DNA of 11,198 nt. It comes from an archaeon (GTDB taxonomy: Archaea; EX4484-52; B79-G9). The notes under the pieces are model-generated. The model worked only from the letters and a program-made list of their open reading frames with translations. It was not told the origin of the DNA and made no database searches. The stretch covers positions 1-11,198 of the forward strand of contig JBDRKP010000044.1 in the NCBI GenBank assembly GCA_043813875.1, read 5' to 3'. Shown piece after piece: positions 1,583-11,198 of this stretch; the first letter of the stretch is position 1, and each line of letters starts with the position of its first letter. The translations under genes were made by a program, and so were the position numbers.

Positions 1583-2089
1583 CTCTGTTTTTTTGTCTTT
1601 GGCTATCAGTGTGATTTTGTGTCTTAGATCTGTTTTCGAGGTCCATCCGATTTTTTTGGCCTGTGGATTGATAAAGGTAGGGGGTTGATGCTGCCGATAG
1701 AGTTGTCGGCTTTTTTTCGGGCATATCCTGAGATGAGGTGAATGAACGTGATCAGCGATGGATCTGTCCTGTGTTTTCCTGATGGTCTTTTGTGCGGATT
1801 GTCATTTGATATATTGCTGATGCCATGATCACTGAATGGGTGGGGCAGAGGGGTGTCTGGAAGATGATTTAATGTGGCGTTGATCGTGATGACGCCGCCT
1901 TCTATAGTATATGCTGCTGTAGTCTGATGGGGGGATCGCGCCGGAGAACAGTCTTGATTGAGTTTGGGTGTTTTTGTTTGTGTGGTCGGAGATATTGCCT
2001 TCTGGTGAGGGTCAATCTTACAGGATTTTGTTTTAGATTGTTTTTACTGAACCGTGGCTGCTAGAAGAATGAGTGAAAACAAGATGAGT

Positions 2090-3865
2090 TCAGATCTTCT
2101 TGTCTTTGGCCATGATGATGATGAATGTGATTATAGAGATGATGTAGCCGGTGTATGAGGTTGTCTTTTTCAATTCTCGGTCTTTACTGTATTCCCAGAT
2201 GTTTGTGGGCTGGGATTGTTGTTTTTTTGATTGGCCGAGGGTCCAACTGTTGTCGTAGGTGTCGGTGAGGACGACGTACTTTTTTTCGGGCTCTTCTATG
2301 AAGTAGTGGGTGTCTGATATTTTTTCGTAGGATAATGGGGTTATGTCGTCGCCGTCTGTCTGGTAGATGATGTATGTGGGGTTGTTGTTGACGTATAACA
2401 GGAGGTTTGTGGTGTTTTTTATTAGGGTGAGGTCTGTCTGGTTTTGCAGGAATTCCTGGTATTTCTGGTAGTCTACTTCTTTTTTTAGCATGACGTATTT
2501 CACATTGATTCTTGCAAGCGATTTGCCGATGCTTGTGGTGTTCTCTTTTAGGGTCTGTTCTATGTATTCTGATCTTGGGTTGTTGCTGCTTGAGTAGATT
2601 CTTCCTGTTTCCATGTTGTCGCCTGTGATTGTGGGTTTTTGGAAGAATGAGCGGGCTACGTTCGCTAATCTTTTGTCTTTGTTTTTGTTCCATGAGTAGT
2701 CCATGTATTGGTGCCAGGGGAGGACGAGGGTGTTGAAGTCTTGCTTGTCGCTGTTTAGGTAGGCGTCCATCTCGTAGTAGTCTTCCGGGTAGTCCTGTGA
2801 GGGGAGGGCGGCGCTTAGGGTGAACATTCCCGTGGTGTAGATCAGGGGGATGATGAGGAGGATGTAGTTCTTTTTTATGGATTCTATGCCTTTTGCGCCG
2901 AGGTAGGCGTAGGCGAGGGCTGCGAGGCCTATGAATTTCTGGGGTTCTCTGAAGCCTTTGAAAAAGAATATGTTTTCGTAGAGGTATCTGTAGATGGGTT
3001 CTGTGTAGGGGGAGGTTATGCCTATGGCGATGATGAGGGATGCGAGCCAGATGAGGGCGAAGGCGTGGTCTTTTGTCCTGACGTAGCCGTGGACGGCAAG
3101 GAACAGGATGATGATGAAGAGGATGGGCCAGTATGAGGGCGGGGAAGAGGTTGTGCGCCAGAAGCCGTGCATGCCTGCGAGGGTGAAGGCGGTGTTGAAG
3201 CTTAGCGCGGGCCTTGAGCGGAAGACGGCGATGTCGTCTTCGGTGATTGTTGATATCTTTTCTGTTGGCTCCTGCAGGAGCCAGTAGGAGTTGAGCAACA
3301 GGATGATTGCGATGACTTTTATTGCGGGGATGATGCTGGTCTTTTTTGGGTTTGTTATCATGATTGCGATGAATATTGTGAGGGTGATAAAGAGGTTGTG
3401 GAGGTTGAGGATTCCTGTCGCGGCGATGATGAGGGCGGCTGATGTTGTGTATTTTTTCGGGTCTTCTTTGAATCTGAGGATGTATTTTACTGCCAGGGGG
3501 GTTATTGCGTAGGCCAGGAGGAGGTTGATGTGGCCTGCAAGGAAGCGGTCGAGGACGAAAGGGTTGATGGCGTAGAGGAGGGCGGCGTAGTATTTCGGGG
3601 TTGCGGATTTGGCGGGGATGAGGTCGTACATCGTGGTGAGTGAGAGGAAGATGACGAGGAATATGAGGAGTTTCTGGATGATTTGTGAGGGGAGGAATAG
3701 GTTTGTTATTGCCAATAGTGTGTAGAATGGGGCTCCGCTTGACTCGAAATGCGTTGTGTAGACCTGCGGGGGGATCATGTCGAGTGAGAAGATGTAGCCG
3801 GGGGCTAGCATGCCCCACATGATCAGGATTGTTAATGCTGCAAATATAATGTGGTGTTTTTTCAT
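2090..3865 (-). CDS. Polytopic membrane protein, GT-C glycosyltransferase-like (YfhO/AftD-like architecture), intact paralog 1
   Basis: 591 aa with many TM segments. Motifs GYIFSLD, AALLYAINPF..RFLAGH, FKGFREPQKF, YPEDYYE, LVLPW, NVKYVMLKK; extracellular C-terminal domain and final TM. Family call is by motif recall only. Confidence 0.7.
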   Translation of the reverse strand: MKKHHIIFAALTILIMWGMLAPGYIFSLDMIPPQVYTTHFESSGAPFYTLLAITNLFLPSQIIQKLLIFLVIFLSLTTMYDLIPAKSATPKYYAALLYAINPFVLDRFLAGHINLLLAYAITPLAVKYILRFKEDPKKYTTSAALIIAATGILNLHNLFITLTIFIAIMITNPKKTSIIPAIKVIAIILLLNSYWLLQEPTEKISTITEDDIAVFRSRPALSFNTAFTLAGMHGFWRTTSSPPSYWPILFIIILFLAVHGYVRTKDHAFALIWLASLIIAIGITSPYTEPIYRYLYENIFFFKGFREPQKFIGLAALAYAYLGAKGIESIKKNYILLIIPLIYTTGMFTLSAALPSQDYPEDYYEMDAYLNSDKQDFNTLVLPWHQYMDYSWNKNKDKRLANVARSFFQKPTITGDNMETGRIYSSSNNPRSEYIEQTLKENTTSIGKSLARINVKYVMLKKEVDYQKYQEFLQNQTDLTLIKNTTNLLLYVNNNPTYIIYQTDGDDITPLSYEKISDTHYFIEEPEKKYVVLTDTYDNSWTLGQSKKQQSQPTNIWEYSKDRELKKTTSYTGYIISIITFIIIMAKDKKI

Positions 3866-3939: not shown

Positions 3940-4731
3940 CTATTTTGTGAGTTCCATGAGGACTGTCTTTATTTCGATGAAATCGAATCCCAAGACTCTG
4001 GCAACTGATGTCATGTCTTCATCAGATATGCTTTCTATAACGGATTTGGCTTTTGTCTTTTCATAAAATGTGAACAGGATATCTTTTAGGGATGAAGTGG
4101 TTTCGTCTGTGTAGAAGAGCAATGCAAACAGGTCTGAGATGTCTTTTATTCTTTTGTGGTCTTTGTCTCTTTTTGGGAGGGAGTTGAGTTTTGTGGCTAT
4201 GAGCAAGGCTGGTGAGGGAAGTATAACTTCTGTTTTGAATACTTTTTTGTTTTTTCTTAATATCTTATTTTCAAATGCATGTCTTAATAATGGCTCGTCT
4301 ATGGGCACAAAGCCGAATGTCGATGTGAATTGGGGGTGGATCGTGTCTACGATCGGGTCGATGTAGAGGGGGAATATGGATGGTGAAAATAGTTTTTTGG
4401 ATTCTTCCAATGTCAGTTCTTTTTCTGTTTCTGTGTGGTAGTTTTTGAATAGTCTTGAGCCCTGCCATTCAAATCCCTCGCCTTCAAGGTGCCGGGACAT
4501 TTTCGAGAATGGGCTGTCTTTCAGCTGGTCTTTGTTCCAGGTTAGGTCTATGTGAAATCCGAGGTCTATGTCGCGTGAACCCGAATAGTTGCGGCCCCGG
4601 GCTTTTTTGAAGTTGTTGTTTACGTGAAGATAGACTGCCCAGCCGCCAAGCAGTACAAGGTCCGGGTATGTACGGATTATCTTTTCGAGGTATCTTTCTG
4701 AGATCTCTGTTTCGTATCGTTCATAGTGCAT
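3940..4731 (-). CDS. AbiEii-like (DUF1814-type) nucleotidyltransferase, putative type IV TA toxin
   Basis: LVLLGGWAV..SRDIDL and LIATKL..R..KRIKDISDL motifs; overlaps the upstream HTH gene. Confidence 0.7.
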   Translation of the reverse strand: MHYERYETEISERYLEKIIRTYPDLVLLGGWAVYLHVNNNFKKARGRNYSGSRDIDLGFHIDLTWNKDQLKDSPFSKMSRHLEGEGFEWQGSRLFKNYHTETEKELTLEESKKLFSPSIFPLYIDPIVDTIHPQFTSTFGFVPIDEPLLRHAFENKILRKNKKVFKTEVILPSPALLIATKLNSLPKRDKDHKRIKDISDLFALLFYTDETTSSLKDILFTFYEKTKAKSVIESISDEDMTSVARVLGFDFIEIKTVLMELTK

Positions 4732-5308
4732 TTTTTTCTACCTTTGCCATGAGCATTTCTGCTGCTTCTTTGCAGACGCTGCCTTCTTTTAGGAGGTCGA
4801 GTATGAGCTGGGGCAGGGATACGATGAATAGTCCCTGCTTTTTTGATGTGTTGTAGAGTGCGTGGTCGTCGGCTATCAATATGCGGACGTTTCCTTTTCC
4901 TACAAGGCCGTTTTTTCTGAGGAGGGCGTGCCATTCAACGAGGTCTTTTTCTTTTATGTAGAAGTCTGTCCTTGAGGGGAAGAGGTAGTTCTGTATGAGG
5001 TTTTCTGCCCTGTATGTGGTGAGGGCGTATTTTAGTGTTGTTTTTTTGAGGAGTTTTTCGGGGTCTTTTAGCATGTATTCTCTTTTTTTGGGGGTTGTCC
5101 GGATGGTCTGCCAGTGGCATATGAGTTTTTTTATGTCCGGGACTGTGGTGCCTTGTATGAGGTTTTCTTTTTGGAGCTGTTTTATGTACTGGTGTGTCCA
5201 GGCGTATGATGAGTGAGATTGTTTTGATATCGCGTACATGGTCATGCCGCCGGGGTTGTTTAATAGTACGCGGATGATTCTTTCCTGTTTTGTGCCTCTT
5301 TTTGCCAT
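4721..5308 (-). CDS. AbiEi-like wHTH antitoxin/regulator
   Basis: Start MAKRGTKQERII at 5308 (TTTATAAA at 5330-5337). HTH TMYAISKQSHSSYAWTHQYIKQL; C-terminal YALT..A, VSLPQLILDLL..EAAEML pattern. Confidence 0.7.
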   Translation of the reverse strand: MAKRGTKQERIIRVLLNNPGGMTMYAISKQSHSSYAWTHQYIKQLQKENLIQGTTVPDIKKLICHWQTIRTTPKKREYMLKDPEKLLKKTTLKYALTTYRAENLIQNYLFPSRTDFYIKEKDLVEWHALLRKNGLVGKGNVRILIADDHALYNTSKKQGLFIVSLPQLILDLLKEGSVCKEAAEMLMAKVEKNAL

Positions 5309-5315
5309 ATGTATA

Positions 5316-5344
5316 GGTAACTGGCAGGGTTTATAAAGGTTACC
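5316..5344 (-). promoter_or_regulatory. TATA box flanked by inverted repeat
   Basis: GGTAAC-N17-GTTACC enclosing TTTATAAA, just upstream of ATG 5308. Confidence 0.5.
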
Positions 5345-5924
5345 GATATGATTTTTTGTTTTTGGGTTTGTGGCTGTAGTCGGGCTTGGATAAATACATG
5401 TCGCCCTGCACTTTTTTTGTGTTGTCTTGTTCTTTTTTTGCGAATAATTTTCCTTTGAGGGCGGATATGGCATCTTTGATGAATGTTTTTAGCTTTCCTG
5501 TAATGTCTTTTAGTATGGATACGATGTATTTTGCTGTATCGCTTAACTGATCTTTTTCGTAGCGTAGATTTTTCGGGATATCTTCTTTTTCTTCTATTAT
5601 GTCGTCTTCGGGGTTCTTTATGTATTCTATGAACTGGGCGAGGACGCCGACGCATAAAAGGTAATAGGCGAGGATGGCGGTCTGGTTGGCTGCGGATTCT
5701 GTCTGGAAGGCCAATTGGAATGCGCTGACCATGAGGAGGATGAGCGCGAAGGCGATGGGGATGCGCGAGTCCTGTTTTCTTATGACGATGATTGCTAATA
5801 GGATGATGAAGGTTGTGAGCTGGATGAGTTCGTTTTCTGTGAAGCGGGCGATGAGTATGGCTATGGCCGTGATTGCTATCGGGAGGTCAAGGATTGTCTT
5901 TAGTTCGTCTATGGGTTTTTTCAT
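5340..5924 (-). CDS. Small membrane protein (about 4 TM) with charged C-terminal tail, intact paralog 1
   Basis: Start MKKPIDELKT chosen by alignment to the paralog start at 9278; DSRIPIAFALILL..ANQTAILAYYLLCVGVL. Confidence 0.75.
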   Translation of the reverse strand: MKKPIDELKTILDLPIAITAIAILIARFTENELIQLTTFIILLAIIVIRKQDSRIPIAFALILLMVSAFQLAFQTESAANQTAILAYYLLCVGVLAQFIEYIKNPEDDIIEEKEDIPKNLRYEKDQLSDTAKYIVSILKDITGKLKTFIKDAISALKGKLFAKKEQDNTKKVQGDMYLSKPDYSHKPKNKKSYR

Positions 5925-6162
5925 TCTATCGCTTCCTGTCGCGTTCCATGAGGCGGGATGTTTCCTCTGCATGCGATTATTTTTTCATGATTGCAAATAT
6001 GTTTTGCAGGAATTTTCTTGAATGTTCAACAGATTCTTTGGCAAAAGGCTGATTAGCCTGTGGAATGGTGCGGTATGTAAAATGGCCTCTCTTCCATTTT
6101 TCTCTTTCGAATATGTTCAGGAGCTCGTCTGCGGTGAATATCATCTCTTTGTATATTTTTAA

Positions 6163-6244
6163 TATAGTGAATCCAACAACTTTTGAGCCAATGTTGGATT
6201 CCCATATACTCAATCCAATAATCCAATAGTTATTGGATTGACTA
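6163..6244 (-). mobile_element. 82-nt twin-hairpin insertion A2 in HEPN gene
   Basis: GAA CTA|TAGTCAATCC..GGATTCACTATA|TTA AAA. TA duplicated; 12-bp and 10-bp perfect stems; 77/82 identical to A1. Confidence 0.85.
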
Positions 6245-6365
6245 TAGTTCGAGGTCAAGTATCCCGGTGTCGACGAATTCTTTCCTGAATTCCTCGTAAG
6301 TCCTCTTGTGGATTTCCGGCGGTTTGGGGTCTATGCCTTTTGTCAGGAGCAATGCTTTGGCAGCG

Positions 6366-6438
6366 TAAAAAATCGTGAAATTTTGATGATATTGTGCAAT
6401 TTCAAGCTTTTTATTATGAGGATATACTTTTATGTGCA
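6366..6438 (-). other. 73-nt insertion D in HEPN gene with 10-bp direct repeat
   Basis: ATT TTT TA|TGCAC..CACGATTTTTTA|C GCT GCC. CGATTTTTTA repeated (6366-6375, 6439-6448); removal restores YYAIFYAAKA. Confidence 0.8.
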
Positions 6439-6536
6439 TAAAAAATCGCATAATATGAATGGGATATTACAGCACTGTAAAATGTGTCCCAGGTTTCGGC
6501 CTGGACTTGCTTTTTTATGTCTTCGCTAACAGATAG

Positions 6537-6618
6537 TATAGTGAATCCAACAACTTATGATATGATGTTGGATTCCCATATACTCAATCCAATAATCCAA
6601 TAGTTATTGGATTGACTA
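6537..6618 (-). mobile_element. 82-nt twin-hairpin insertion A1 in HEPN gene
   Basis: CTG ATA|TAGTCAATCC..GGATTCACTATA|CTA TCT. TA duplicated; near-identical to A2. Confidence 0.85.
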
Positions 6619-6620
6619 TA

Positions 6621-7283
6621 TCAGCAGGGCTTTTGCAAGCCGCTGTTCGTTTTCTGAGCGTTCGCGGTAAAGCTTGGATAAGTGAATCCATGTTTTTTCG
6701 CCTCGTTTATTATCAGGTAATAGTTTTGCGCCCCGAAGTATATGAGCCGGTTCTTATAGATCAGCTTTCCGTAGTTCTCTTCTTTTGAAAGAAGCATGGC
6801 TATGTATTCTTTCTGCGTGAAGACATAGGGATGCATTTGGGGGATCATGAGTTCTCCCTTGTTCTTCAGCGTGTTGTGGATTGATGTTGTGTCGCTGTCG
6901 GTGATGACTACTATGTCTAAGTCGGATTTTTTTGCCTGTGTCCCTTTTGCGTAGCTTCCGGCGATTATAAGTGTAAAATATGGCGTGCCTATCATCCTGA
7001 ATATCTCATCGATATTGGGTATTTCCCGTTCGCATGCTTCAAGTTCGTCTAATAGCGAGAGGTATTTTATTGCAAGGGCTGATTCCAGGTCAATCCTCGC
7101 TATCTTTGAATGCCCTTTGGTTTCCAGCTTGAGGATACCCTTTTTTGCAAGCTTTTTTACTGTGTTGAATGTCCATGAATAGGATGTTGTCTTTATGATC
7201 CTCGAGATCTCGTTGATTGTAAATGAGCCGGAAAGCTGTTTCCTGAAGATGTCGATTATTCTCTGTTCTTTTTTTGTCAGCAT
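6621..7283 (-). CDS. wHTH + MNT nucleotidyltransferase antitoxin
   Basis: HTH FTINEISRIIKTTSYSWTFNTVKKL; GSYAKGTQAKKSDLD (GSx10DxD); SD GGAGGT 7 nt upstream. Confidence 0.85.
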   Translation of the reverse strand: MLTKKEQRIIDIFRKQLSGSFTINEISRIIKTTSYSWTFNTVKKLAKKGILKLETKGHSKIARIDLESALAIKYLSLLDELEACEREIPNIDEIFRMIGTPYFTLIIAGSYAKGTQAKKSDLDIVVITDSDTTSIHNTLKNKGELMIPQMHPYVFTQKEYIAMLLSKEENYGKLIYKNRLIYFGAQNYYLIINEAKKHGFTYPSFTANAQKTNSGLQKPC

Positions 7284-7285
7284 AT

Positions 7286-7340
7286 ATTATACCTCCGAAA
7301 GTATAATGTTATACTTTTATAAGTATATTATGTTTATATA
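7286..7340 (-). promoter_or_regulatory. TATA box, two tandem palindromic operators and SD
   Basis: ATTATAC-N8-GTATAAT (7286-7307) and TATACTT-N4-AAGTATA (7310-7327), 22 bp apart; TATATAAA at 7333-7340; GGAGGT at 7291-7296. Confidence 0.6.
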
Positions 7341-7451
7341 TCTTTTGATGGTCATCTCTTCTTTTTGGCTTATAGGCGCAACGTGACGATTTGCGGCGTT
7401 TTTGCGGGTGAACACCGATAATTACGCTATTGTCCTTTACGCCGGCAAGAA

Positions 7452-8130
7452 TCATGCCGCCTGGGGTGGCAAGCTTTTTATTTGACAATAAAAAGGCTTC
7501 GAGCGCGAGTGAGATGATTTTTTGGGCTCGTATCGCTTTTTTTCTTCAAAATCATGCCACTTCGTGGCAAGCTTTGCTTGCTCTTTTCCGTACCCAAGCA
7601 AATGGTATTTTACGTCTTTCAAGGCAGGGTTTTTCGGGATTGCGTGTATCTTGTATGGCTTCTCTTTCTTTAGTTTTTGCCTTATGCGGGATAGCGTGTC
7701 TTTTGTTGTTTTTATTGCGGCGTCTTTGATGCCGTGGATTTTGGGGCGCTTTTTTGCCATTATGTTTTTTGGAATTTTCGGCATGATGCTCTGGGGTTTG
7801 TAATCGAGGGGGTCTTTTTTCTTTTTTCTCCAGTCGTAGATCATGAAACTTCTGTCCAGAAGATCCAGTTTCAAGCTTTTCAAGGCATTCAATCGGGGTC
7901 TTATGCCGTTGAAAATCAGGTAAAGGATGGACAGTATCAAAGTGGTGAGTGAGATGGCTGCGCCGATATCATGCCACTCTGCGGCTCGTACTCTATCTTT
8001 ATCTTTAAATCTCCTGTCTCGTTTATCCGGAAGCCGTTGATGACGGAGTAAAGGGGGGGGACGGAGCATACCATTTTCGACGAAACCGCAGTGCTGTTGA
8101 TTTTGCCGGTACATACATTCCATAAAAACC
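7452..8130 (-). pseudogene. 3' remnant of a membrane-anchored surface protein with Lys-rich tail
   Basis: One frame reads ..PLYSVINGFRINETGDLKIKIEYEPQ, then a frameshift near 7980 leads into WHDIGAAISLTTLILSILYL (TM) and the Lys-rich tail. No credible 5' part. Confidence 0.55.
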
Positions 8131-8168
8131 CTGCATAAATTAATATTAATGCACCTCAAACAATCCGT

Positions 8169-8507
8169 ATGAATCTTTCCTATATAAAGAATCTCCTTCG
8201 GAAAACAAAAAAAGAGAATTATAAAATCAAGGCTAATATACGGCATAAAATTGAAAAGATTCACAATGTTTCGATGGATGAAGTCTTTAAAAAGCTGGAT
8301 GACCCCGGGAATCTGGTTTCTGTTAAGACGTATCCATGCCGTTCAAAACATGATGAATCGTACAGGATTTATTTTGAGATAAGCAAAAGGAAAAAGCTTG
8401 TTGTCGGCATAACATATAAGAAGCTGTTGAAGAGAATCCATATTATAACCGCATTTCACACCACTAAAAAAACAGATAAACTTATAAGGAAAGCAAGGCC
8501 AAGATAA
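8169..8507 (+). CDS. DUF4258/BrnT-like (RelE-fold) toxin candidate
   Basis: 112 aa basic protein: H..EK.HNVSMDEV..YRIYF..LVVGI..IHIITAF pattern; directly upstream of a DUF2283-like gene. Confidence 0.6.
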   Translation: MNLSYIKNLLRKTKKENYKIKANIRHKIEKIHNVSMDEVFKKLDDPGNLVSVKTYPCRSKHDESYRIYFEISKRKKLVVGITYKKLLKRIHIITAFHTTKKTDKLIRKARPR

Positions 8508-8519
8508 ATTGTGTTAAGT

Positions 8520-8846
8520 ATGAAGAATATATCATTTGAATATGACTATGGGGCAAATTATCTGATTGTCCATAAAAACAAACCTGCAAAGGCGAGCATA
8601 GAGCTTGGAGAGATAATTGTTGACATAGATAAATATAATCAGGTAACTGCAGTTGAAATTATGAATCCTGACAAGCTTTTCGGCATTCCAAAAAAGGCCC
8701 TGAAGAACATAGACGAGGCTAAAATAAGGACTGAATACAGGGACGGGATGTTCTGGATATTTCTGATACTCAGGATTGGTAAAGAGACAAGGCCGATAAG
8801 CATCCCGTTATTTCTTGAGCAGCCGGCATTAGCGGCATCAGCTTAG
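8520..8846 (+). CDS. DUF2283-like antitoxin candidate
   Basis: FEYDYGANYLIV..SIELGEIIVDIDKYNQVTAVEIMN matches the YD..D.L/I.D.D..G...GIEI pattern. Confidence 0.7.
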   Translation: MKNISFEYDYGANYLIVHKNKPAKASIELGEIIVDIDKYNQVTAVEIMNPDKLFGIPKKALKNIDEAKIRTEYRDGMFWIFLILRIGKETRPISIPLFLEQPALAASA

Positions 8847-8863
8847 CGGCATGAATTGCCGTT
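8845..8863. terminator. Short hairpin between convergent genes
   Basis: AGCGGCA-TGAAT-TGCCGTT at the DUF2283-like stop codon. Confidence 0.3.
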
Positions 8864-8881
8864 GTCTCTCTTGTCCCGCAA

Positions 8882-9278
8882 TTATACGTTTTTGCCATCT
8901 CCCGGGTTTTTTACGTATTCCACAAACCGGGCGAGGACGCCGGCGCACAGGAGGTGCAGTAAAAAACCCGCGATGGTTTTTTCCACATACATAAATCGCT
9001 TACAGCGATTTAGTATAGTAGGCGAGGATGGCGGTCGCGTTTGCCGCTGTTTCGGTTGCAAATGCAAGCTGGAAGGCTGAGACCGCCAAAAGGATGAGGG
9101 CGAAGGCGATCGGGATTCTTGAGTCGTGTTTTCTTGTGACTATTATGATTAGAAGGATGATGAAGATCGCCAATTGGGTGAGTTCTGATCCTGTGAAGCG
9201 GGCGATTAGGACGGCTATCGCCGTGTTGATTATCGGGAGGTCTGCGATGGTTTTCAGTTCTTCCAGGGGGTTTTTCAT
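8882..9278 (-). pseudogene. Small membrane protein paralog 2, interrupted by a 61-nt insertion
   Basis: Aligns with 5340-5924. Removing 8955-9015 gives ..TAILAYY|LLCAGVLARFVEYVKNPGDGKNV (111 aa) versus paralog TAILAYYLLCVGVLAQFIEYIKNPEDD. Confidence 0.85.
8955..9015 (-). mobile_element. 61-nt twin-hairpin insertion C
   Basis: TAC TA|TAC TAAATCGCT GTA AGCGATTTA TGTATG TGG AAAAAACC ATCGCG GGTTTTTT ACTGCA|C CTC. Absent from paralog 1 (empty site near 5661-5663). Confidence 0.85.
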
Positions 9279-9339
9279 GCTATCTCTTCCTGTCTCTGGC
9301 CATGAGGCGCTTTTTGGTGTCTTCTATCTGCTTTTCGAT

Positions 9340-9683
9340 GGTGCGGTCTTCGAATCATGCCACTTTGAGTGGCAAGCTTTTGAATCCTTGGGATTCAAAA
9401 TGGCCATTTTTTGGGTTTGTATTTCTGCTTTTCTTCAAAATCATGCCACTTCGTGGCAAGCTTTGCTTGCTCTTTTCCGTGTCCCAAGCAAATGGTATTT
9501 GACGTCTTTCAATGCAGGGTTTTTCGGGGGCTTCTGTTTTTTTAGATTCTGGATGCTTGATAGCGTGTCTTTTGTTGTCTTTATTGCGTGGTCTTTGATG
9601 GCGTGGAGCGGGTTGCGCTTTTTGGGCATGATGTTTTGGGGTTTTTATTTGAGCGGGTCTTTTTTGTGGTCGTATATCAAACA
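9340..9683 (-). pseudogene. Degenerate second copy of the Lys-rich tail region (paralogous to about 7450-7843)
   Basis: Shared AIKTTKDTLS, PKNPALKDVKYHLLG and GKEQAKLATKWHDFEEK; extra base near 9481 relative to the 7591 region. Confidence 0.65.
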
Positions 9684-9712
9684 TATATATATATATAAAT
9701 CTAATTTAATTC

Positions 9713-10129
9713 ATGGATGAAAAAACAAAAGATAGAGATATCATTTATCCGACACCTGAAAGAATCGTGGAATATAACCTTTTCGTCCTTACTGTGATTG
9801 ACGCGAAAAAGGGGGATAAGGCAGAGGTTTTAAGCTACCGCAAGATTGCTGATGTTGTTGAAGGATGCAAGAATCTGGAGGGAGACATCTACGACAAGGC
9901 AGCGTTTCTGATGAAGTCACTGATACAAAAGCATCCGTTTGCAAGCGGCAACAGAAGGACAGCGTTTATTGTCGCAAAAGGATTTTCGCTTGATAATCAT
10001 GCAAAATTCAATATTGCGGATAATCCTATGAATGCGAGAGTGATGATCGGCATAAGGGAGAGTTATTATACTGATCCGGAGATAAAGGAGTGGATTAGAG
10101 ATGGAACAATCCGAGAATTTAGACGATAA
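9713..10129 (+). CDS. Fic/Doc family toxin
   Basis: HPFASGNRRTA Fic motif; IYDKAAFLMKSLIQKHPF is typical of Doc-like proteins; 138 aa. Confidence 0.9.
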   Translation: MDEKTKDRDIIYPTPERIVEYNLFVLTVIDAKKGDKAEVLSYRKIADVVEGCKNLEGDIYDKAAFLMKSLIQKHPFASGNRRTAFIVAKGFSLDNHAKFNIADNPMNARVMIGIRESYYTDPEIKEWIRDGTIREFRR

Positions 10130-10223
10130 GAGAAGATACGAGATAGTATCCGAAGAGCTGAAGAGATTCAACAAGCTTGTAAAGGGACACAAGAAGATTC
10201 TTTATGCTATCGGAAATCTTTGA
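10101..10223 (+). CDS. 40-aa peptide, putative Doc antitoxin (not in ORF track)
   Basis: MEQSENLDDKRRYEIVSEELKRFNKLVKGHKKILYAIGNL*; overlaps the Doc 3' end by 29 nt; amphipathic helix pattern. Confidence 0.6.
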   Translation: MEQSENLDDKRRYEIVSEELKRFNKLVKGHKKILYAIGNL

Positions 10224-10278
10224 ATTGGGTGTCTTTTTTGGGTTCCCTGGGTGTCCTGCCAGATTTTCCGGCCGTGTC

Positions 10279-11198
10279 TCATGGGGCGGGATCGCGGATA
10301 TTTCTCAAAATGAGAAGAAGATACAGGAATGTCATTATCGATATGATGTATCCGGTGTAGGATGAGCTTTTTTTTATTTCCGTGTCTCCAACGTATTCCC
10401 AGATGTTTACGGGCTGGTTTTGTAGTTTCTTTGATGCGCCAAGGGTCCATGCGTCGCTGTATGTGTCTGCGAGGACGACGTACTTTTTTTGTGGCTCTTC
10501 TATGATGTAGCTGTTGTCTTTAATCTTTTCGTATGCTAGCGGGGTTATGTCTTCGCCGCCTGTCTGGTAGATCCTGTAGGTGGGGATGGTGTTAACGTAG
10601 AGGAGGAGGTTTGTGGTGTTTTTTATCAATGTGATGTCTTCCTGGGTGTTCAGGAGCTGCTCGTAGGGTTTGTAGTCTACTTCTTTTTTCAGGAGGATGT
10701 ATTTTACGTTTATTTTTGCGAGTGACTGGCCTAAACCGGTCGTGTTCCGGGTCATTATTGATTCTATGTATCCTGATCCCGGGTTGTTGCTGCTTGAGTA
10801 GATTCCTCCTGTTTCCATGTTGTCGCCTGTTATCATGGGTTTTTTGAAGAATGAGCGGGCTACGTTCGCCAGTCTCTTGTCTTTGTTTTTGTTCCATGAA
10901 TAGTCCATGTACTGTCAAAGCCACTGGCTTTGCCATATCCTCAAGGCAGGTCTGCTTGAGGATACTGGTGCCAGGGGAGGACGAGGGTGTTGAAGTCGCT
11001 TTTGTCGTTGCTTAAGTAGGCGTCCATCCCGTAGTAGTCCGCGGGGTAGTCCTGGGCGGGGAGGGCGCCTGAAAAGCCGAAGAACATCATGTATGAGTAG
11101 ATGACGGGGAGGATGATGAGGATGCAGCCTTTTTTTCCTATTCTTTCTGTACCGAGGCTGCCGAGGTAGGCGTAGGCGAGGACTGCGAGGCCTATGAA
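10279..11198 (-). pseudogene. GT-C-like membrane protein paralog 2 (5' end outside window), interrupted by a 53-nt insertion
   Basis: 11198-10963 reads FIGLAVLAYAYLG..YPADYYGMDAYL..NTLVLPWHQY with no stop, and joins MDYSWNKNKDKRLANV once 10910-10962 is removed; colinear with paralog 1 (LPWHQYMDYSW). Confidence 0.85.
10910..10962 (-). mobile_element. 53-nt twin-hairpin insertion B
   Basis: CAG TA|TCCTCAAG CAGACCTGC CTTGAGGATA TGG CAAAGCC AGT GGCTTTG ACAGTA|C ATG. CAGTA direct repeat; empty site in paralog 1 near 2705-2707. Confidence 0.9.

Follow-up and report, generated by a model that had tools for sequence, protein, structure and literature searches.

Short inserts in an island of accessory genes

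The window analysed here, 11,198 bases in length, is the entire contig C44 of a 1.64-Mb genome in 90 contigs (G000) from a DPANN archaeon; the genome includes an archaeal 16S gene (1478 bits). The window is an island of accessory genes, with two nucleotidyltransferase-HEPN pairs, two GT-C-like membrane protein paralogs, and Fic/DOC and DUF2283 genes. An initial annotation had drawn attention to five short inserts within protein genes of this island, taken as a single family. All five are present: A1 (6163-6244), X (6366-6438), A2 (6537-6618), B (8955-9015) and C (10910-10962). Excision of the inserts restores the reading frames of the hosts, as had been claimed. A1, A2, B and C are built to one design, a pair of adjacent hairpins, and X belongs to a separate hairpin family. 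The inserts and the genes that carry them are listed below; bit scores refer to the covariance model R1, introduced in the next section.

6163..6246, minus strand: A1, twin-hairpin element, 84 nt with both TA dinucleotides, sense in a HEPN-like gene (73.9 bits, E 4.6e-12)
6366..6438, minus strand: X, second hairpin family (A-run, GCTT, hairpin, ATGA, T-run), in the same HEPN-like gene as A1 and A2
6537..6620, minus strand: A2 (73.2 bits), close to the 5' end of the HEPN-like gene that also holds A1, immediately behind the stop codon of the nucleotidyltransferase frame upstream
8955..9017, minus strand: B, mini copy of 63 nt with loops deleted, in a small membrane-protein paralog; its 3' TA reads CA
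10910..10964, minus strand: C, mini copy of 55 nt with loops deleted, in a GT-C-like membrane protein paralog; TA on both sides
5980..6760, minus strand: host gene 1, HEPN-like, with A2, X and A1 breaking it; paired with the nucleotidyltransferase at 6624-7283
8856..9278, minus strand: host gene 2, carrying B; intact paralog at 5343-5924
10282..11198, minus strand: host gene 3, carrying C and truncated where the contig ends; its intact paralog, GT-C_AftD-like, lies at 2093-3865

Removal of 82, 73 and 82 nt from the minus strand between 5970 and 7290 yields a single open frame of about 190 codons, HEPN-like and located just downstream of the nucleotidyltransferase gene. Pfam recognises NTP_transf_2 on 6624-7283 and HEPN (PF05168, E 0.0011) on one piece of host gene 1; an intact nucleotidyltransferase-HEPN pair lies at 565-1724. 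The two full inserts of this gene, A1 and A2, are 93% identical across 87 nt.

Empty counterparts of the B and C sites, reported by the initial annotation in the intact paralogs, were seen at ~5655 and ~2700, respectively. The empty C site reads CACCAATACATGG and the filled site CAG-TA-[51 nt]-TA-CATGG. A single TA is found in two empty homologs of this site, the window paralog and one in the relative G006, and TA stands on both sides when the site is filled, indicating a target-site duplication. B sits at the TA matching that of its empty site, GCCTATTACCTT; its ends share one A only, the 3' end being TGCA as against the family consensus TATA, a degraded duplication. Duplication of the target is judged from these two empty sites only. 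A second copy of C occupies the same codon of a paralog elsewhere in the genome (G000:C47:4578-4632), the two copies differing at 2 of 53 nt; B has no close relative elsewhere in the genome. X is flanked by a 10-nt direct repeat, CGATTTTTTA, and its family is represented elsewhere in G000 by about 10 partial copies recognised by similarity and by 26 copies recognised by motif.

A family of elements with two covarying hairpins

The design common to A1, A2, B and C can be written T-ATAG-stem1-loop-stem1'-(T)-CTAT-ATGG-stem2-loop-stem2'-AC-TAT-A. In the twin-hairpin fold, the first TA is base-paired to one inside the element. A length of about 103 nt is standard, within a range of 53-227 nt; B and C correspond to elements from which both loops have been deleted, and longer copies contain smaller hairpin modules nested in the loops or at the TAT^ATGG junction. 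Short modules of the kind nested in longer copies (AAGCTT-hairpin-CATGA, for example TCATGCCACTTCGTGGCAAGCTT) also occur in the window at 7430-7600 and 9350-9480, beside or inside small paralogous frames.

The proposal that the copies share an architecture in which the stems differ and yet always pair is borne out, far beyond chance, by covariation in a structural alignment of 24 copies (20 stretches from the genome and the four window copies). Compensatory double changes occur at 16 of the 21 predicted pairs, 125 such changes in all. Pairing is retained in 98.1% of 486 cells of the alignment, compared with 70.7% in shuffles, none of 500 of which reached the observed value, and with 27-43% when the partners were slid. 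About 4 of the 486 cells are G-U. In the main subfamily the ends are dissimilar beyond TATAGT, leaving a shared terminal inverted repeat, TATAGT/ACTATA, of 6 nt; in the CAAGGCA and AATCC subfamilies the inverted ends are longer, about 11-13 nt. The target consensus, AAnTAtwT, is AT-rich and roughly symmetric, with T at -6, AA at -3 and -2, and T/W/T at +1 to +3.

At one locus (G000:C53:31244-31499) two copies of the family stand in tandem with one TA between them. Here one copy has inserted into the terminal TA of another, which hints at how the twin-hairpin unit itself may have come about.

Scanned with the covariance model R1, as the initial annotation had advised, G000 and its relatives prove to harbour a large repeat family. 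G000 has at least 95 matches at E<=0.01, a lower bound since 150 of 954 candidates were scored. At E<=1e-4, matches are found in 17 of 31 related genomes; by group, they occur in all seven other genomes of the genus (20-101 matches each), in six of eight from two sister genera and in three of 15 from other families of the order. Comparison of G000 with itself gives 410 repeat regions, the largest linked group of which numbers 130.

That G000 is a metagenome-assembled genome (MAG) of 90 contigs might raise the suspicion of an assembly artefact or a strain mixture. The family, however, occupies hundreds of sites across 17 genomes that were assembled independently. Groundwater metagenomes were the only sequencing runs found to have sequence words in common with the window. 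When one groundwater metatranscriptome and three groundwater DNA runs were compared with the whole window, contigs of an independent DNA run were found to end or start exactly at the border of A1 (6165 and 6163), as they do at real repeats. An artefactual origin of the inserts is extremely improbable.

Copies inside genes

The location of 166 copies, 57 in G000 and 109 in five relatives (the best-scoring 17-30 per genome), was assessed with a codon log-odds score of our own making, in place of a standard gene finder. A copy was assigned to a gene if, after excision of the element leaving one TA, 40 codons on each side scored as coding in one frame. In this way 12 of the 57 copies in G000 (11 that pass the test plus B, which needs a 61-nt cut) and 13 of the 109 in the relatives were placed inside genes. 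The total, 25 of 166, compares with 44% of 3000 random TA sites, which were scored at a stricter threshold than the element copies (binomial p 8e-16). Three of the host genes were confirmed by Pfam contiguity on the unaltered halves (AlbA_2 1-55 / 63-98; YhcG_C 2-67 / 70-156; AlbA_2 / HATPase_c_4 plus HTH). The hosts are dispensable, multi-copy accessory genes: HEPN genes, AlbA_2 ATPases, a YhcG nuclease and the GT-C paralogs.

Copies inside genes are also younger. In G000, their median identity to the nearest neighbour is 0.94 (n=11), against 0.85 for the others (n=46; p 0.009), and those on contigs C24, C38 and C79 are 100% identical to a copy at another locus. In-gene insertions are thus recent, older ones having been removed by selection, and it is for this reason that the flanking coding DNA appeared "almost undamaged" in the initial annotation. 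C may be an exception to this explanation.

All 12 in-gene copies of G000 are in the sense orientation (p 0.0005). They represent about 10 independent cases, since C and its twin on C47 count as one event, A1 and A2 share one gene, and the copy at C20:16535 is weak. The 13 in-gene copies of the relatives comprise nine sense and four antisense (sense bias p 0.27); by eye, two of the sense cases (G001:C28 and G002:C137) and one of the antisense cases (G003:C79) are weak, and the antisense copies G005:C118 (cupin-like), G005:C141 and G001:C21 have real-looking host proteins. The overall sense bias, 21 of 25 (p 0.0009), rests on G000. In G000 and the relatives together, the TA falls on codon positions 1-2, that is, on a Tyr codon, in nine of 17 sense in-gene copies versus 24% expected (p 0.01, post hoc); this excess may reflect the wider target preference, AAnTAtwT.

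The sense orientation invites the idea, put forward in the initial annotation, that the inserts are removed or bypassed at the RNA or translation level. Short non-triplet inserts with hairpins in reading frames are known from T4 gene 60, from the "byps" of yeast mitochondria and from archaeal bulge-helix-bulge (BHB) introns. By analogy, sense copies inside genes would be neutralised after transcription, at least in part, and tolerated as mini-introns: the stacked twin hairpin would bring the exon ends together, and the insert would be either hopped over by the ribosome, from the TA codon to the TA repeat, or cut out by a nuclease acting with a ligase. In the modelled fold, the exon ends do meet at the junction of the stacked hairpins. 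At C, the putative take-off and landing codons, 53 nt apart, are both Tyr (TAT and TAC), and at A2 both are ATA, with TAG next. Neutralisation of this sort would explain the all-sense copies of G000, the frequency of the Tyr codon and the constraint still apparent in the C-bearing paralogs, whose ratio of nonsynonymous to synonymous substitutions (dN/dS) is 0.28 at dS 0.35. If true, this would be the first case in archaea of a mobile element that acts as a bypass or mini-intron.

A larger body of evidence makes this idea improbable. The copies are strongly depleted in genes, those inside genes are young, and four of 13 in the relatives are antisense. The codons do not match at B (TAT/CAC) or A1 (CTA/ATA), unlike in bypass elements. 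The archaeal BHB motif consists of two 3-nt bulges 4 bp apart, with exon-intron pairing at both borders; no such motif is found here: each element folds into a pair of closed hairpins whose bulges measure 1 nt, and the exon sequence at the borders changes from copy to copy. At E<=1, Rfam models matched none of the elements; the one match in the window, at 3026-3083, is weak and unrelated. The near absence of G-U among the covarying pairs fits DNA rather than RNA. Finally, the C47 host of the second C copy lacks about 87 N-terminal residues. Removal or bypass is therefore not supported, and by the refuting conditions that the initial annotation had set, frequent intergenic copies and an in-gene orientation that is not exclusive reduce the finding largely to a MITE-like element (MITE, miniature inverted-repeat transposable element).

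Three contigs of the metatranscriptome run match the window (1770-2075 and 5069-5531), none over an element, and among the contigs of all four runs none skips one, so that these data have no bearing on splicing or on empty alleles. The contig at 5069-5531 shows no mismatch at a depth of 36.6 and covers the last part of the frame 4721-5473 together with the region where the small membrane-protein gene starts. The splicing endonuclease EndA, which occurs in all archaea, is present in G000. ARAGORN, run without its intron option, reported about a dozen tRNA genes in this 91.5%-complete genome, many of whose tRNA genes may carry introns or be split.

The two C-bearing paralogs (window and C47) are 88% identical at the DNA level, and in their downstream half neutrality is disfavoured with a Fisher p of 2e-6. 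About 200 nt around the C site are unusually alike between the two, a sequence pattern suggesting gene conversion among the six or more C-host paralogs. Because an ATG lies directly after the C insert, it is also possible that the host is now a split gene. When the seven other genomes of the genus were searched at the DNA level, only one had a match to the C host (66% identity, site empty), so the age of the insertions is not traceable across species.

Orientation and strand skew

Of 35 pairs of neighbouring copies on a contig, 30 share the same orientation (p 2e-5). The sense strand of the element is the C-rich, A-rich strand in 34 of 41 contigs (p 2.5e-5), independently of gene strand: in a regression, the coefficient for the element is -0.10 and that for gene strand 0.066, and GC skew at third codon positions is -0.30 in genes co-oriented with elements and +0.23 in those oriented against them. 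The X family shows the same strand bias (20 of 26). Among the relatives, 68 of 109 loci agree with the skew, including 15 of 20 in G001, 14 of 17 in G002 and 14 of 20 in G004. Co-orientation with genes was considered as a source of the sense bias and rejected: the majority gene strand of the contig is not followed (44 vs 39), and the local one is followed weakly (49 vs 34).

The GC skew of G000 is itself strong, bimodal and long-range, with contigs at -0.10 to -0.26 and at +0.10 to +0.26 (C53, C67 and C54 are examples), and largely independent of gene strand. So strong a skew is unusual in an archaeon, and it offers a possible means of orienting contigs with respect to replication.

Mode of movement and search for a partner enzyme

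We favour, with a probability of roughly 45%, the reading that A1, A2, B and C belong to a non-autonomous, MITE-like family of mobile DNA whose cycle includes a single-strand step in which the hairpins are read, X being a copy of a second such family. The initial annotation had offered, as another possibility, recent non-autonomous elements moved as folded single strands; mobility and lack of autonomy hold, given identical copies at different loci, and the single-strand part is plausible. A copy would land at a TA and end up with TA on both sides, and copies inside genes would be ordinary gene-breaking insertions in dispensable, multi-copy accessory genes. The movement machinery would recognise the hairpin pair and, in place of a long inverted repeat, the short feet TATAG/CTATA; recognition of this kind would imply that one step, either movement or loss, acts on a single folded DNA strand. 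The system would then work like REP/RAYT (repetitive extragenic palindromes and their associated tyrosine transposases) or like the palindrome-associated transposable elements (PATEs) of IS200/IS605, with the enzyme acting in trans. A single-strand step is favoured by the shortness of the inverted repeat, by stems that differ between subfamilies and yet always pair, by the pairing between the target TA and a TA inside the element, and by a strand bias common to two unrelated hairpin families.

For these reasons a single-strand step is preferred, by a small margin, to transposition as double-stranded DNA. The latter has a real, if somewhat lower, chance of being correct. In that case the family would be a classical MITE moved by a trans-acting DDE transposase of the IS630/Tc1-mariner type, with duplication of TA. 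The hairpins would be by-products of the fusion, head to tail, of two fold-back mini-elements sharing a TA, their arms kept alike by repair, and the strand bias would come later, from orientation-dependent loss. Each hairpin alone does resemble a unit bounded by TATAG...CTATA, and the tandem pair sharing one TA on C53 is in keeping with such a fusion. The TA on both sides of C, single at the empty paralog site, the inverted TATAGT...ACTATA ends and the roughly symmetric, AT-rich target also agree with it. G000 contains an IS630-like element with at least four ends at contig breaks, and the youngest copies of the family are without strand bias. The ends and sizes of the family, moreover, resemble those outlined in PMC2649163 for Correia elements (TATAG[CT]GGATTAAC..., 104-108 or 153-157 bp, with target duplication). 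Against a DDE transposase stand the different ends and the CTAG site (4 of 4 ends) of the resident IS630-like element, and stems that differ and always pair next to an inverted repeat of only 6 nt, which a sequence-specific DNA-binding transposase would leave unexplained. The presence of DDE_3 in only three of eight genomes of the genus is weak evidence in the same direction, these MAGs being 68-91% complete; all eight bear the element.

Several results weigh against the single-strand reading. Flanking TA, inverted ends and a symmetric target are traits of IS630/Tc1-like cut-and-paste transposition and are atypical for IS200/IS605. No partner transposase was identified in G000 and 31 related genomes: Y1_Tnp is present in six and DDE_3 in seven of the 31, and neither tracks the element. 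A scan of nine transposase loci with R1 revealed no R1-like ends beside any of them, the best hit (E 0.05) being at a locus unrelated by eye. Two relatives, G003 (11/22) and G005 (14/30), show no strand bias. In G000 the bias depends on age, only five of the 11 copies with nearest-neighbour identity >=0.97 following it as against 40 of 46 older ones (p 0.007). Strand bias may therefore arise after insertion, although this dependence has two readings, the youngest copies lying also in low-skew regions. The uniform sense orientation of the 12 in-gene copies of G000 is explained by a plain MITE model only through extra assumptions (polar effects, an antisense T5 run). Lastly, the dN/dS of the C-bearing paralogs hints at constraint after insertion.

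Within the window, a domain scan of 16 reading frames or gene pieces found no transposase, in agreement with the initial annotation. Two candidates from elsewhere in G000 were rejected as partners. The first is the resident IS630-like element (G000:C62:11787-12995), which consists of an HTH frame and a DDE_3 frame, apparently joined by a frameshift; further ends lie at contig breaks on C82, C46, C47 and C63. Since several contigs break inside it, this element is multi-copy and probably active. Its ends (GTRMC...TTAATTRAC) and its CTAG target (4/4 ends) are unlike those of the family. The second, the sole Y1 transposase of the genome, is fragmentary, and its end forms a GC-rich hairpin of an unrelated kind. 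A further repeat (CCCCGCAGCAAGCTACGGGGTATTACGG...) occurs at contig ends (G000:C61:26836-26992, C64:31675-31829 and C83:17372-17576) and is similar to what lies immediately downstream of an IS200-like TnpA gene in the relative G005; it probably represents the end of an element of the IS200/IS605 type.

Relation to known elements

The family has the generic traits of MITEs, being short, non-coding, present in many copies at unrelated loci and associated with target-site duplication. We read it as MITE-like, unusual in its anatomy and strand behaviour, rather than as an intron or recoding device: matched codons are not seen in all copies, the BHB motif is absent and the copies are not restricted to the sense orientation.

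PATEs are minimal derivatives of IS200/IS605 elements, which transpose as single strands by "peel and paste"; the ends of IS200/IS605 elements are not inverted, and insertion takes place 3' of a word of 4-5 nt, with no duplication. The present family is like them in having a hairpin near each end, in its strand asymmetry, in an orientation tied to one chromosome strand and in being non-autonomous. It is unlike them in its TA flanks and inverted TATAGT ends, and its ends are not shared with the resident TnpA-type element. REP sequences and REPINs, mobilised with RAYT, present a hairpin and a short conserved foot for recognition, reach very high copy numbers, are mostly extragenic and form doublets; REPs are shorter, GC-rich and tied to a single-copy RAYT gene. 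Hairpin and short foot, high copy number, mostly extragenic location and doublet organisation are all found here as well, but the element is longer and a RAYT gene was not found.

With IS630-derived MITEs, among them MITEEc1 and RUP, the family shares a duplicated TA target and a length of about 100 nt. It differs in having ends unlike those of the resident IS630-like element and in showing no preference for CTAG. MITEEc1_IS630 is named in a MITE census (PMC11602168), which also places a Woesearchaea genome among the MITE-densest archaea.

There is also a resemblance to the Correia elements of Neisseria (CREE, Correia repeat enclosed elements, or NEMIS, neisserial miniature insertion sequences). 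As outlined in PMC2649163, these have TATAG ends, a target duplication, a length of ~105 or ~155 nt and no known transposase. TATAG ends, duplicated target, similar sizes, high copy number, lack of coding capacity, the disruption of genes by some copies and the want of a known partner transposase are common to both. In Correia elements, however, inverted repeats of 26 nt pair end to end, whereas here the repeat is 6 nt and each half forms its own covarying hairpin. The host is a DPANN archaeon rather than a bacterium, and orientation follows the strand skew. The 26-nt Correia repeat, TATAG[CT]GGATTAAC..., is not matched, only TATAGTG.AT being held in common with the A subfamily. A search of an open-access library for MITEs in DPANN archaea listed no description of this family, which does not prove that there is none.

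Implications

Should the favoured reading be true, the family would represent undescribed but basically ordinary selfish DNA in DPANN archaea, a lineage whose mobile elements have barely been studied. It calls for caution in annotation, as the element splits genes that gene callers then report as fragments. Two features are out of the ordinary: the compensatory upkeep of two hairpins in an element whose inverted ends are 6 nt long, and the orientation of two families tied to skew. Together they could help to infer the direction of replication in fragmented archaeal assemblies, and they could point to an unknown, structure-reading transposition enzyme in archaea.

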